Assembly: GCA_014913405.1 (NCBI GenBank)
Contig: GCA_014913405.1_3931.1
Length of the DNA stretch: 64,000 nucleotides
Origin: a phage
Direction: 5' to 3' (one strand)
The notes under the pieces were generated by a model. It saw nothing but the letters and a program-made list of their open reading frames with translations, did not search any database and was not told the origin of the DNA. The translations under genes were made by a program, and so were the position numbers. This document shows, piece by piece, positions 3,313 to 28,019 of the stretch. Each line of letters begins with the position of its first letter. The first letter of the stretch is position 1.

Positions 3313-3578
3313 CAGAGAATGAAGATACTTTTTACGTAGAGGGTTACTTACTGTTACCACGACCAAAAGAAACTTATATGCGAATTGACTTCTTACCAAC
3401 CATTATGGATAATGTGATGTGTCATATCTTTATGCAAGGTGTCACAGCACAGCTTAAGCACGTTGGTAAAGAGTGCAAAATAAAGGTTGACACTCATCCA
3501 GAAATCAAAGAGAATCACTACACATGGTTCTTACCAGACTCTAAAGAAATCTTAGCAGTTCTCAAAACGAGGAAATGA
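3309..3578 (+). CDS. Hypothetical protein
   Basis: ORF, overlapping stop/start coupling. Confidence 0.45.
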   Translation: MTENEDTFYVEGYLLLPRPKETYMRIDFLPTIMDNVMCHIFMQGVTAQLKHVGKECKIKVDTHPEIKENHYTWFLPDSKEILAVLKTRK

Positions 3579-3889
3579 TTATGCAATTCCAGCCAACAAA
3601 TCGTGGATTTTCTTATGCAGAATTTAAAGATGCTAAAGGGGAAATTTGTACTTTACAAGAGAGTTCATCATATGAACCATGTATTTGGTTAGGTGCTAAA
3701 GAGGTCTCTGTTCAGTACCTAGATGGTGGCTGGAAAACACTTGATATCCCAGCATTAGTAGGCAAAGATTTTGTAGGTAACCAAAGAATGAAACTCAACC
3801 AAGAACAGGTGAAAGAGTTATTGCCATACCTTCAGTACTTTGCTGAAAATGGTGAATTACCAACAGAGGAACTTACAAATGCAGATTAA
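3575..3889 (+). CDS. Hypothetical protein
   Basis: ORF, translationally coupled. Confidence 0.45.
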   Translation: MIMQFQPTNRGFSYAEFKDAKGEICTLQESSSYEPCIWLGAKEVSVQYLDGGWKTLDIPALVGKDFVGNQRMKLNQEQVKELLPYLQYFAENGELPTEELTNAD

Positions 3890-4205: not shown

Positions 4206-4413
4206 AAAGACACGTAAGATTGTAAGTTCAGCAGTATTCAAAGGGAGACATGAAGTCGTCCCGTTTACAGGAGAAGGTGTGTTAACTTACAAGAAGGTGA
4301 TGAAACGTGAGTGCAGTAACCATTTCCGTGACTTCTTCTCTGAACCATTAGGAGACTTTAAAAGTCGCTGTGGTAAAGGCATCATCACTCAAGAGGTAAT
4401 TATTCATGGCTGA
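4180..4413 (+). CDS. Hypothetical protein
   Basis: ORF. Confidence 0.35.
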   Translation: MKVILARDKKTRKIVSSAVFKGRHEVVPFTGEGVLTYKKVMKRECSNHFRDFFSEPLGDFKSRCGKGIITQEVIIHG

Positions 4414-9524: not shown

Positions 9525-9773
9525 ATGTATACTAAAACTCAACTAAAAAACATGGTTAGCAATGGCTTAATGGATGAAGTCTATAAAGAGTGTAGACGCT
9601 ACGGGGAAATTAAGGATAAGACTAGTTATGAGTATACCCACACAATAGACTTTAAAACCAATGAGAAGAGGACTGACCTTGTTACTGTAGTAGTGATTGA
9701 GTATAAACGAATTATTTGGACCTTTGAGCTAGTAAAAGGTGAGTGCACAGAGATAGAATATAAAGACGCTTAA
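9525..9773 (+). CDS. Small early-type protein, hypothetical
   Basis: Conserved leader/RBS. Confidence 0.6.
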   Translation: MYTKTQLKNMVSNGLMDEVYKECRRYGEIKDKTSYEYTHTIDFKTNEKRTDLVTVVVIEYKRIIWTFELVKGECTEIEYKDA

Positions 9774-25182: not shown

Positions 25183-25257
25183 GGGAGATTGACGGTAATT
25201 GGTAAACCTACCATCCTTAGAAGTTGGTGTTTGAGGGTTCGAATCCCTTGTCTCCTA
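25183..25257 (+). tRNA. tRNA with TAG anticodon (Leu-type) but short variable loop
   Basis: Manual fold, 75 nt. Confidence 0.45.
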
Positions 25258-25267
25258 CCAAATTAAT

Positions 25268-25340
25268 GCAGGTGTAGCAAAATGGTTATGCGGCTGACTC
25301 TTAATCAGTAAGACGATGGGTTCAATTCCCTCCACCTGTA
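25268..25340 (+). tRNA. tRNA-Lys(CTT)
   Basis: Manual fold; paralogous to Lys(TTT). Confidence 0.5.
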
Positions 25341-25349
25341 CCAAACATT

Positions 25350-25422
25350 GGGGATGTAGTTTACATGGTTAAAACATAAGTTTTGCAAACTTAAGTACAG
25401 GGTTCAATTCCCTGCTTCTCCA
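25350..25422 (+). tRNA. tRNA-Ala(TGC)
   Basis: Manual fold; G3-U70 identity pair present. Confidence 0.7.
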
Positions 25423-25431
25423 CCAATTAGT

Positions 25432-25503
25432 GCATCCATAGTTTAAACGGGAAAATTACAGTCTTCCAAACTGAGGTTGAGGGTTCGATTCCCTCTGGAT
25501 GCT
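25432..25503 (+). tRNA. tRNA-Gly(TCC)
   Basis: Manual cloverleaf. Confidence 0.65.
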
Positions 25504-25512
25504 CCAAACAAT

Positions 25513-25586
25513 GCTGCTTTCGTATAATTGGCTATTACACATCCCTTGTAAGGATGGAAATGCAGGTTCGAGTCCTGTGAGCAGCA
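25513..25586 (+). tRNA. tRNA-Thr(TGT)
   Basis: Manual cloverleaf, perfect anticodon stem. Confidence 0.7.
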
Positions 25587-25591
25587 CCAAT

Positions 25592-25681
25592 TCAGAGGTC
25601 AAGTGAAAGACCGCTTTGAGTCAACTGAAGACCGTAACAAATACCACGGAGTTGAGTTAGCGGCACAACTTCAGACCTCTT
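25592..25681 (+). ncRNA. Structured inter-tRNA element E5 (related to E1-E4)
   Basis: CAGAGGTC ... GACCTCT closing stem; internal CTGAAGACCGTAACAAATAC. Confidence 0.35.
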
Positions 25682-25685
25682 TCAT

Positions 25686-25757
25686 ACTCGCTTAGTTTAT
25701 ATGGTAAAACATCACCCTTACAAGATGAAGAAAAAGGTTCAAGTCCTTTAGTGAGTA
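25686..25757 (+). tRNA. tRNA-Val(TAC)
   Basis: Manual cloverleaf. Confidence 0.6.
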
Positions 25758-25761
25758 CCAT

Positions 25762-25836
25762 GTTCCAGTATCCCAATTGGCAGAGGATGCAAGCTCAAAC
25801 CTTGTATTAGTGACGGTTCGAATCCGTCTTGGAACA
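25762..25836 (+). tRNA. tRNA with CAA anticodon (Leu-type) but short variable loop
   Basis: Manual fold, 75 nt; Leu-like D-loop AATTGGCAGAG. Confidence 0.45.
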
Positions 25837-25844
25837 CCAATTTT

Positions 25845-25917
25845 GCAGGATTAGTTCAAATGGAAAGAGCAACAGTCTACGAAGCTGTTAATAGGGGTTC
25901 GAATCCCTTATCCTGCG
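25845..25917 (+). tRNA. tRNA-Arg(ACG)
   Basis: Manual cloverleaf, perfect acceptor. Confidence 0.7.
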
Positions 25918-25937
25918 CCAGATAAAAAGGTGATACT

Positions 25938-26180
25938 ATGCAAACATTAACAGTAGTTGAACATGAAAACTGTGAGAGTATTGAGTTTGTCAGGGTCATT
26001 GGTGTTGAACACCACATTTTCTTAAAAGTGGGATACTTATGTGACCCCGCTAGAGTAGAAAGATTTATACGTGATTGTTTTGGTGGTAGACATCTGAAGA
26101 GTGTTATTTTTGAGACAGTTTTACCAGAAGGTTTAGAAACGAATAATAACATTTACCTCCTTACGAGGATTAGACAATGA
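25938..26180 (+). CDS. Hypothetical protein embedded in tRNA array
   Basis: ORF with AAGGTGA SD. Confidence 0.5.
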   Translation: MQTLTVVEHENCESIEFVRVIGVEHHIFLKVGYLCDPARVERFIRDCFGGRHLKSVIFETVLPEGLETNNNIYLLTRIRQ

Positions 26181-26734
26181 GATACTTAAAGTATGCTTCA
26201 TGGATTTTCTTAGCTTTGTTAGAGCCATTTGCAGCAATCTTAGCAGTTATCTTAGCACCTTTTGTAGTTCCATTCTACAGTGAGAAGAAAGGACACTTAC
26301 CTTTCGGGTTCAGATGGATGGAGACATATGACAACCCAATTGATGGTGATGAAGGTCACGTTAAAAGATGGGCTAATATTAGATGGATTGGTAAACTAGG
26401 TGTCTACATGCAAAGAGTCGGATGGCTCTGGAGAAACAAAGCTTATAACTTCTCTTACCATGTATTAGGAAGAGATGTAAGAGATGTTACTAAGTGGAAA
26501 GGTAATATCAACGTAAGTTCTAACCCTGAAGATAATCAGACTGGTTATCTCCTAATGTGGAACAGTAATGCTTGGGGATTATTCGCTTTTATCCCATCAA
26601 TTAAAGTCTTCGGTAAACAGTTTTACTGGAGAATTTATGTTGGATGGAAACTTAAAAGTGTTGTCCCAGAAGAAAGAGCATTCTCAAGGGAAAGAGTTAT
26701 GTTGGCATTCTTTATTCATCCACTGAGAAAGTAA
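26177..26734 (+). CDS. Membrane protein (N-terminal TM helix, Trp-rich), embedded in tRNA array
   Basis: ORF coupled by ATGA overlap. Confidence 0.5.
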   Translation: MRYLKYASWIFLALLEPFAAILAVILAPFVVPFYSEKKGHLPFGFRWMETYDNPIDGDEGHVKRWANIRWIGKLGVYMQRVGWLWRNKAYNFSYHVLGRDVRDVTKWKGNINVSSNPEDNQTGYLLMWNSNAWGLFAFIPSIKVFGKQFYWRIYVGWKLKSVVPEERAFSRERVMLAFFIHPLRK

Positions 26735-26742
26735 AGATTTAA

Positions 26743-26815
26743 AGGGGATTAGTTTACAAGGTTAAAACCTCGGTCTTTGAAATCGAAGAAGTTGGTTCAA
26801 TTCCAACATCCCCCG
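26743..26815 (+). tRNA. tRNA-Gln(TTG)
   Basis: Manual fold; 1-72 mismatch. Confidence 0.6.
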
Positions 26816-26820
26816 CCAAT

Positions 26821-26896
26821 GCTCCATTACTCCAATTGGCAGAGAGGCCAGACTTAAAATCTGTGTTATGTATCGGTTCGAATCCGATATGGAGTA
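26821..26896 (+). tRNA. tRNA with TAA anticodon (Leu-type), 7-nt variable loop
   Basis: Manual fold, 76 nt. Confidence 0.45.
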
Positions 26897-26904
26897 CCAA
26901 ATTT

Positions 26905-27922: not shown

Positions 27923-28012
27923 GGAAGATTAACCCTAAAAGGTAAGGGAGCAGTTTGCTAAACTGCCAGTAGCTGAGAAATCGGTGTACCAGTTCAAGTC
28001 TGGTATCTTCCT
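27923..28012 (+). tRNA. tRNA-Ser(GCT), class II
   Basis: Manual fold, 90 nt, perfect acceptor and anticodon stems. Confidence 0.7.
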
Positions 28013-28019
28013 CCAATTT

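Follow-up and report, generated by a model that had tools for sequence, protein, structure and literature searches.

Only one bacterial exception to the long-armed leucine tRNA is on record, and it has been presented as one that needs a special leucyl-tRNA synthetase (LeuRS). Streptomyces coelicolor possesses a natural type I tRNALeu(CAA) with the variable loop ACAGC, which the LeuRS of this species charges with leucine (Fan et al. 2019, PMC6614811). The same paper, in which phages are not mentioned, calls the Streptomyces enzyme the only prokaryotic LeuRS for which charging of type I as well as of type II tRNALeu is known; within the searchable literature, the phrase "type I tRNALeu" was found in this paper only. 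For the E. coli LeuRS, the elements reported are A73, A15:U48, G18G19, A20a and the tertiary pairs that link the D loop with the T loop (PMC9976931; introduction of PMC6614811). The anticodon and the long arm are not among its determinants, and a minimal tRNALeu without the arm is active (PMC9976931, PMC6614811), whereas the seryl-tRNA synthetase (SerRS) reads the size of the long arm (PMC9976931). Here we describe three tRNA genes with leucine anticodons and without the long arm in a 64,000-nucleotide (nt) stretch of phage DNA, referred to below as the window (contig GCA_014913405.1_3931.1 of the assembly GCA_014913405.1). Judging from the sequence, we consider it likely that they encode functional type I tRNALeu, charged by the LeuRS of the host and serving the UUA, UUG and CUA codons of the phage.

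Three leucine tRNA genes without the long variable arm

ARAGORN finds 26 tRNA genes on the + strand of the window, three of which carry leucine anticodons. The three genes, the array to which they belong and its long-armed members are as follows:

25183-25260, + strand: tRNA-Leu(UAG), type I; 78 nt with CCA, 75 nt without; anticodon 25218-25220; variable loop TGTTT (5 nt, 25228-25232); discriminator A73 at 25257; encoded CCA 25258-25260; ARAGORN, and Rfam RF00005 at 40.0 bits
25762-25839, + strand: tRNA-Leu(CAA), type I; 78 nt with CCA, 75 nt without; anticodon 25796-25798; variable loop ATTAGT (6 nt, 25806-25811); discriminator A73 at 25836; encoded CCA 25837-25839; ARAGORN, and Rfam RF00005 at 44.0 bits
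26821-26899, + strand: tRNA-Leu(UAA), type I; 79 nt with CCA, 76 nt without; anticodon 26855-26857; variable loop GTTATGT (7 nt, 26865-26871); discriminator A73 at 26896; encoded CCA 26897-26899; ARAGORN, and Rfam RF00005 at 47.5 bits
22884-28095, + strand: array of 26 tRNA genes that contains the three Leu genes; ARAGORN, Rfam
23443-23530, + strand: tRNA-Tyr(gta), 88 nt, long arm; ARAGORN, Rfam
24839-24928, + strand: tRNA-Ser(UGA), 90 nt, long arm; ARAGORN, Rfam
27923-28015, + strand: tRNA-Ser(GCU), 93 nt, long arm; ARAGORN, Rfam

The initial annotation, made by eye, had described the Leu genes as 75-76 nt long with variable loops of 5-7 nt, and the calls of ARAGORN and of Rfam (tRNA model RF00005, threshold 29 bits) bear this out. 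It had left two alternatives, namely that the phage works with Leu tRNAs that have no long arm or that the anticodons had been misassigned. The first is supported and the second is excluded by two independent programs, which give the same short cloverleaves and the same anticodons. In the ARAGORN folds the three tRNAs have a 7-base-pair (bp) acceptor stem, a 5-bp T stem and a 7-nt anticodon loop, and each combines a leucine anticodon with a loop of about 5 nt that ends at nucleotide 48, which is the description of a type I tRNALeu. A variable region of more than 10 nt with a stem-loop, as in class II tRNAs, is absent from all three and present in the Ser and Tyr tRNAs of the same array, whose long arms had been correctly noticed from the start. 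The short loops are a deterministic feature of the sequence and not a statistical one.

The previously reported leucine-like D loop is indeed found in two of the genes, Leu(CAA) and Leu(UAA), both of which contain CAATTGGCAGA. In Leu(CAA) the D arm consists of a 3-bp stem and the loop C13 A14 A15 U16 U17 G18 G19 C20 A20a G21 A22; the C13.A22 mismatch and the 11-nt D loop, which characterize the D arm of class II tRNAs, are found in both genes. From sequence comparison, Leu(CAA) and Leu(UAA) can thus be described as uniting the D arm of class II tRNAs with the variable loop of class I tRNAs. Leu(UAG), the D loop of which is TAATTGGTAAA, is more divergent; its acceptor and D stems are joined by 3 nt, and it has the loop UAAUUGGUAAA, but it still possesses A14, A15, G18G19, A20a, U48 and A73. 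It has a G1.U72 pair and a U30.U40 mismatch in the anticodon stem; Leu(UAA) likewise has G1.U72, together with a C27.U43 mismatch. The Rfam alignment of Leu(UAG) begins one base later (25184) than the ARAGORN call, with one acceptor position deleted; the ARAGORN register (G1.U72, A73, encoded CCA) matches the rest of the array and the homolog from phage BF23. In two genes of the array ARAGORN separates the acceptor stem from the D stem by three nucleotides instead of two, Leu(UAG) (25190-25192, + strand) and Ser(GCU) (27930-27932, + strand).

All the elements reported to matter for the E. coli enzyme are present in the three tRNAs: A73, U8:A14, A15:U48, G18G19 with U55C56, A20a and U54:A58. 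The tRNALeu of E. coli K-12 encoded by leuW, leuZ and leuX, which served as the host reference and were compared with the phage genes by hand, exhibit the same 17-nt layout of the D arm as Leu(CAA) and Leu(UAA), with a 3-bp stem, an unpaired 13:22 and an 11-nt loop of the form N-A14-A15-Y-Y-G18-G19-Y-A20a-G-A. They also have in common with these two phage tRNAs A73, the T loop and U48 as the last base of the variable region, and the G1.U72 pair of Leu(UAA) is shared with leuZ. The sole architectural difference is the variable region, which comprises 13-15 nt in the host tRNAs and 5-7 nt in the phage tRNAs. Leu(CAA) and Leu(UAA) have no blastn match in 5,426 complete E. coli genomes, even at E = 10, and are therefore not host or prophage genes.

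The remainder of the array holds some further peculiarities. Two tRNA genes on the + strand (23137-23213 and 24124-24200) have a CAT anticodon; one of them may be an initiator or a lysidine-dependent tRNA-Ile2 instead of an elongator Met, and the second was not placed as Met by crude isotype classifiers. Two open reading frames on the + strand (25939-26179 and 26178-26735) lie between tRNA-Arg(ACG) and tRNA-Gln(UUG) and are listed as hypothetical proteins in public records; the longer one (26178-26735, about 185 amino acids) begins with a hydrophobic stretch.

Conservation and covariation of the short form

The window belongs to the genus Felixounavirus. Its 2.1-kb stretch with the Leu genes matches 256 phage records, the best being Escherichia phage vB_EcoM-Ro111lw with 99% identity, and the others are Felix O1-like phages of E. 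coli, Salmonella, Shigella and Citrobacter, mostly at 90-99% identity. Pfam domains along the window include the large terminase, portal, tape measure, baseplate J, tail fibre and family A DNA polymerase. Leu(CAA) is at least 99% identical in 160 of the 292 phage records that it matches, and Leu(UAA) in 216 of 264; such near-invariance within surroundings of 90-99% identity suggests that both genes are under selection within the genus. The 355 phage records that match Leu(UAG) include 261 at 80-90% identity, and the examples listed within this band are mostly T5-like phages.

The comparison with tRNALeu of related phages, which had been proposed as a check, revealed short Leu homologs with paired changes in their stems in BF23 and in Erwinia phage Hena2. 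The acceptor stem of the CAA gene of the latter is wholly different, yet fully paired. Short Leu genes (74-78 nt according to ARAGORN) accompany long Ser and Tyr genes in four further phages:

Erwinia phage Hena2: short Leu genes CAA, AAG and UAA (ARAGORN)
Aeromonas phage AhP_Mru1: short Leu genes UAG, CAA and UAA (ARAGORN)
Enterococcus phage EFGrKN: short Leu gene UAG (ARAGORN)
Lactobacillus phage LpeD: short Leu genes UAG, UAA and CAA (ARAGORN)

The same design thus occurs in phages of both Gram-negative and Gram-positive hosts. The Leu tRNAs of T4 (87 nt) and T5 (85 nt) are of the classical long type, which may be the reason why the short form went unnoticed. All three genes of the window are labelled tRNA-Leu in public records, and the paper on the Felix O1 genome (2010) lists them with lengths of 78, 78 and 79 nt and with tRNAscan-SE calls as Leu (Cove scores 52, 46 and 58), without comment on the arm (PMC3185647). 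We found no paper describing short-armed tRNALeu in phages; earlier reports on T5 and BF23 in subscription journals or in Russian may exist.

Two of the phages contain other unusual tRNAs. LpeD encodes, directly upstream of tRNA-Ser(GCT), a 92-nt tRNA with the TAT (Ile) anticodon (ARAGORN; positions 4296-4387 of the fetched locus), a length typical of class II; a long arm combined with an Ile anticodon would be the reverse oddity. A tRNA of AhP_Mru1 with the TCA anticodon, which reads UGA (positions 796-875 of the fetched locus), is a suppressor tRNA according to its record and a tRNA-SeC of 74 nt according to ARAGORN.

The pattern of a short variable region was found at no fewer than 120 loci in IMG/VR, and ARAGORN, applied to all the fetched loci, yielded at least 202 distinct short Leu tRNAs from viral DNA. 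Among these 202, the anticodons are UAG in 65, UAA in 58, CAA in 55, GAG in 10, AAG in 8 and CAG in 5. Among the parsed distinct sequences, the variable loop is 5 nt long in 167, 6 nt in 18 and 7 nt in 6, and loops such as ACAGU, UCAGU and CCAGU are common. A occupies the discriminator position in 192 of 201, and the variable loop ends in U in 190 of 192; the search pattern demanded neither of these. The Ser and Tyr genes at the same loci are almost all long.

When 145 distinct short Leu tRNAs, viral and five bacterial, with the three genes of the window included, are aligned, A14, G18, A35, U55, C56, A58 and A73 are found to be invariant, and U8, A15, G19, A20a and U48 to be conserved in at least 90% of the sequences. 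The cells of this alignment are paired according to the type I cloverleaf in 97.8% of cases, as compared to 33-47% when the 3' partner is slid by one to three columns, and double-sided changes occur in all 20 pairs. The covariation score of 0.998 was reached in none of 500 shuffles, for which the score is 0.225. The first acceptor pair is G.U in 56 of the 145 tRNAs, including two of the three from the window.

Proposed decoding and charging, and the evidence on both sides

The mechanism that we propose is as follows. The tRNAs of the array would be processed by host enzymes, and the three Leu tRNAs would be charged with leucine by the host LeuRS, which would read A73 and the shape of the corner formed by the D and T loops (U8:A14, A15:U48, G18G19, A20a), and would ignore both the anticodon and the long arm. 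The UAA tRNA is predicted to decode UUA and UUG, the CAA tRNA UUG, and the UAG tRNA CUA together with other CUN codons. The window has a GC content of 38.8%, and its leucine codons comprise TTA (28%), TTG (13%) and CTA (12%), together 53%, and CTG (13%). In E. coli, CTG accounts for about half of the leucine codons. The phage tRNAs would serve codons that are common in a phage of 39% GC and rare in its host.

The tRNAL1 (tRNA-Leu UAG) of the T5-like phage BF23 (AJ604530), which is 77 nt long and of type I, is 84% identical to Leu(UAG) of the window. The two tRNAs come from phages of different families (BF23 belongs to the Demerecviridae) with the same host species, and they share the short loop (GUUUU in BF23), the T arm and the U30.U40 mismatch. 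They differ by paired compensatory changes at 2:71, 4:69 and 29:41, by the D loop, which in BF23 is a G13-AAUUGGCAUA variant, and by the connector, which has the normal 2 nt in BF23 and 3 nt in the window. The depositors of AJ604530 state that tRNAL1, with its anticodon swapped to CUA, is an "effective amber suppressor", which implies that a close relative of Leu(UAG) is made, matured and charged, and that E. coli ribosomes use it. That the charging survives a change of the anticodon is as expected of an anticodon-independent synthetase such as LeuRS. We found no paper that remarks on the short loop of BF23 tRNAL1. From this statement, and from the maintenance of the short genes in coliphages, we infer that E. 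coli LeuRS charges a suitably built type I tRNALeu.

Between tRNA-Ala and tRNA-Ser, where BF23 (AJ604530) has its 77-nt type I Leu(UAG) (positions 1497-1573 of the fetched locus), phage T5 (NC_005859) has a type II Leu(UAG) of 85 nt (positions 9625-9709 of the fetched locus), with 57 of 77 positions shared with the BF23 gene. They are alternative genes and not a single gene that has kept or lost its arm. The term "truncated", used in the initial annotation, is right with respect to the absence of the arm, but it is loose wording for two different Leu genes that occupy a syntenic site. The tRNA-Ala beside Leu(UAG) also differs between T5 and BF23, and the tRNA region of the T5-like phages is a mosaic. 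A type I Leu gene hidden in the "RNA2H" region of T5 was also considered and was ruled out on checking, as the match was to BF23-like relatives and not to the reference T5.

Several results weigh against functional tRNALeu charged by the host. First, E. coli LeuRS is reported to have left the S. coelicolor type I tRNALeu(CAA) uncharged, and it is said to charge type II only (PMC6614811). That tRNA has C48, as opposed to the U48 of the phage tRNAs, which pairs with A15 at a position that matters for E. coli LeuRS, and therefore the negative result may not transfer to the phage tRNAs; it is still a real warning. Second, the depositors' statement on BF23 tRNAL1 leaves the inserted amino acid unstated. 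Third, classification by isotype is equivocal. A hidden Markov model (HMM) classifier with masked anticodons, built per isotype from about 1,700 tRNAs and correct for 16 of 23 controls, places Leu first for the CAA tRNA, narrowly, and second, behind Gly and Glu, for the UAG and UAA tRNAs. A nearest-neighbor classifier with the variable region removed (15 of 21 controls correct) places Leu first for UAG and UAA, and Arg first for CAA. Fourth, folding of the single sequences by minimum free energy gives the full cloverleaf for CAA only, with modest z-scores of -0.8, -2.2 and -1.7; the anticodon stem contains a non-standard pair in two of the three tRNAs (U.U for UAG, C.U for UAA); and no other short-loop tRNA of the array, Phe (45.0 bits) aside, scores as low in Rfam as these three with their 40-47.5 bits.

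The third group of results could be taken to mean that the isotype is wrong and that another synthetase charges these tRNAs, so that a different amino acid is inserted at UUA, UUG or CUA; the class I shape is, after all, atypical for Leu, and the HMM ranks Gly or Glu marginally above Leu for two of the genes. However, no alternative isotype is consistently favored by the two classifiers, each of which is right for about 70% of the controls, and the Leu-type D arm, A73 and A15:U48 are all in place. As the terminase of the window has no sequence matches in the PDB, orthologs from Erwinia phages, with a protein identity of 68%, were used to assess the meaning of the codons. In the terminase and the portal, 29 of 42 TTA, TTG and CTA codons align with Leu in these orthologs, the remainder being mostly Ile, Met and Val; the rate is the same as that of the remaining leucine codons, CTT, CTC and CTG, with 28 of 36. 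The Leu sites that match TTA, TTG and CTA are encoded in the Erwinia phages mostly by other Leu codons (CTT, CTG). There is no sign of recoding in these two proteins as compared to the Erwinia phage orthologs, and since the host tRNALeu reads the same codons, recoding would result in a mixed proteome. We regard recoding as highly improbable.

The fourth group would be expected of decaying pseudogenes that are still recognized by gene finders, and one T5-like record (Yersinia phage phiR2-01, NC_019919.2, 31489-31561) labels the homolog of Leu(UAG) as "tRNA-Pseudo-TAG". Yet the genes are nearly invariant across hundreds of phage genomes and encode the CCA, the invariant bases are kept, there is one mismatch in each of two anticodon stems, and compensatory changes are observed among the Felix-like, BF23-like and Erwinia-phage orthologs and, as covariation, throughout the family. 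The BF23 homolog is, moreover, annotated as a working suppressor. We regard this explanation, too, as highly improbable, and functional type I tRNALeu charged by the host LeuRS remains the reading that we favor. Annotation pipelines can, as the Yersinia phage record illustrates, flag arm-less Leu tRNAs as pseudogenes, and such labels lead to undercounting of phage tRNA repertoires.

Loss of the arm and known type I systems

Among the class II isotypes, Leu alone could shed the arm because SerRS needs it, and the reading of arm size by SerRS would explain why the Ser tRNAs keep theirs in the same arrays. The loss itself may have been neutral, may have protected a fast-drifting phage tRNA from mis-serylation, or may have removed a handle for toxins that act on class II tRNAs, which provides a testable idea on why phages drop the arm.

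To compare viruses with bacteria, loci matching a pattern that allows either length and requires the AATTGGYAGA D loop were drawn from IMG/VR and from the GTDB species genomes; the counts refer to samples of the loci listed and are not censuses. Type I Leu genes make up 14 of 118 viral loci, i.e. about 12%, and 3 of 120 bacterial loci (odds ratio 5.3, Fisher p = 0.005). The premise of the initial annotation, that tRNALeu of bacteria and of most phages belong to class II, holds for 117 of the 120 bacterial and 105 of the 118 viral loci sampled, but the short form is much commoner in phages than had been assumed.

This roughly five-fold enrichment would be compatible with an anti-defence role, in which the arm was shed as a recognition or cleavage handle of toxins acting on class II tRNAs, so that leucine decoding is kept when the host tRNALeu is inactivated; such a role would add to the explanation given above and not replace it. 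The abortive-infection toxin AbiEii probably prefers long-armed class II tRNAs, like MenT3 (preprint 10.64898/2026.01.19.700257), VapC52, which has a part in phage defence, cleaves tRNASer inside its long variable arm (PMC13273310), and phage tRNAs are known to escape anticodon nucleases via sequence changes (PMC10264068). The Leu isoacceptors of one phage also tend to be all of type I. On the other hand, no enterobacterial toxin is known to target tRNALeu via the arm, T4 and T5 manage with type II Leu, and the Ser and Tyr arms are kept in the same phages, although for Ser this is required by SerRS. The enrichment could equally reflect relaxed constraint together with transfer of genes from phage to phage, and we regard the anti-defence scenario as rather unlikely.

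In the other scenario, neutral or streamlining loss, deletions of the arm, which LeuRS does not need, were tolerated in fast-evolving, AT-rich phages and spread by duplication and transfer without any specific advantage. It agrees with the dispensability of the arm for E. coli LeuRS (PMC9976931) and with the relationships among the tRNAs. With the variable region stripped, 193 of 205 type I tRNALeu, and 25 of 38 from an unbiased subset where 12% would be expected, have another type I tRNALeu as their nearest relative; the type I Leu tRNAs thus form sequence families, probably with few origins followed by spread among phages. In the window, Leu(CAA) and Leu(UAA) share the D arm and T loop, have similar acceptor stems and look like paralogs, and Leu(UAG) falls into a different subfamily. 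On the other side of the balance, the length of the variable region is sharply bimodal among the loci listed (5 nt or 11-19 nt, with almost none between), whereas gradual decay would leave intermediates, and the 5-nt loop and U48 are strongly conserved. The two length classes and the conservation of the 5-nt loop with its final U speak for a defined alternative structure and not for decay. All in all, we give neutral loss slightly less than an even chance. A stronger proposal takes the arm to be the only class II feature that is dispensable to LeuRS and holds that the arm-less tRNALeu is a widespread, phage-specific solution, repeatedly fixed because it escapes toxins or avoids mis-serylation, and charged efficiently by ordinary LeuRS of the E. 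coli type. We think it improbable in this full form; if true, it would contradict the published view that an E. coli-type LeuRS charges type II only.

The bacterial type I loci listed come from Gordonia, Herbiconiux and a metagenome-assembled genome (MAG) of Planctomycetota, all of them GC-rich:

Gordonia sp.: type I Leu, positions 491-566 of the fetched locus
Herbiconiux sp. chromosome: type I Leu, positions 2732-2806 of the fetched locus
Planctomycetota MAG: three type I Leu genes in tandem, positions 3550-3794 of the fetched locus, adjoining a 100-nt Tyr gene

We considered the possibility that these loci are prophages and rejected it, as the neighboring genes are cellular (subtilase, histidine kinase, glutamate synthase, sigma factor) and no phage genes are found nearby. 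Type I tRNALeu is thus probably a native component of other bacterial lineages besides Streptomyces.

Three conserved arm-less Leu tRNAs in a classical genus of Salmonella and E. coli phages provide natural substrates for the question of whether E. coli LeuRS charges type I tRNALeu. They are also compact, natural Leu tRNA scaffolds for the design of suppressors, the charging of which might be independent of the anticodon if LeuRS does charge them.

With respect to known systems, the window tRNAs are set apart from the class II tRNALeu encoded by E. coli (leuW, leuZ, leuX) and by phages T4 and T5 by a variable region of 5-7 nt in a gene of 78-79 nt, as opposed to a variable stem-loop of 13-15 nt in a tRNA of 85-87 nt, and they have in common with them the anticodons, A73, G1.U72 in the UAA species, the 3-bp D stem with the 11-nt D loop AAYYGGYAGA, U48 and the T loop. 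The tRNALeu of animal mitochondria resemble them in the lack of the arm, in A73 and in being charged by a LeuRS of the bacterial type (PMC9976931), but these are reduced, AT-rich organellar structures with a dedicated mitochondrial LeuRS, unrelated in sequence to the phage tRNAs. A close parallel is provided by the tRNALeu(CAA) of S. coelicolor, which is found beside type II tRNALeu in an organism with a single LeuRS and whose 5-nt loop resembles the common phage loops. Its gene, however, is located in the chromosome of a high-GC actinobacterium, and the LeuRS of that organism does not use A73 as an identity element (PMC6614811), whereas the genes of the window belong to an enterobacterial phage, encode A73 and A15:U48 and, in two cases, have loops of 6-7 nt. 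The annotation of the three genes as Leu has been known since 2010; what is new is their type I architecture, which represents a phage instance of a rare known kind of tRNALeu and is much more widespread in phages than the literature suggests.

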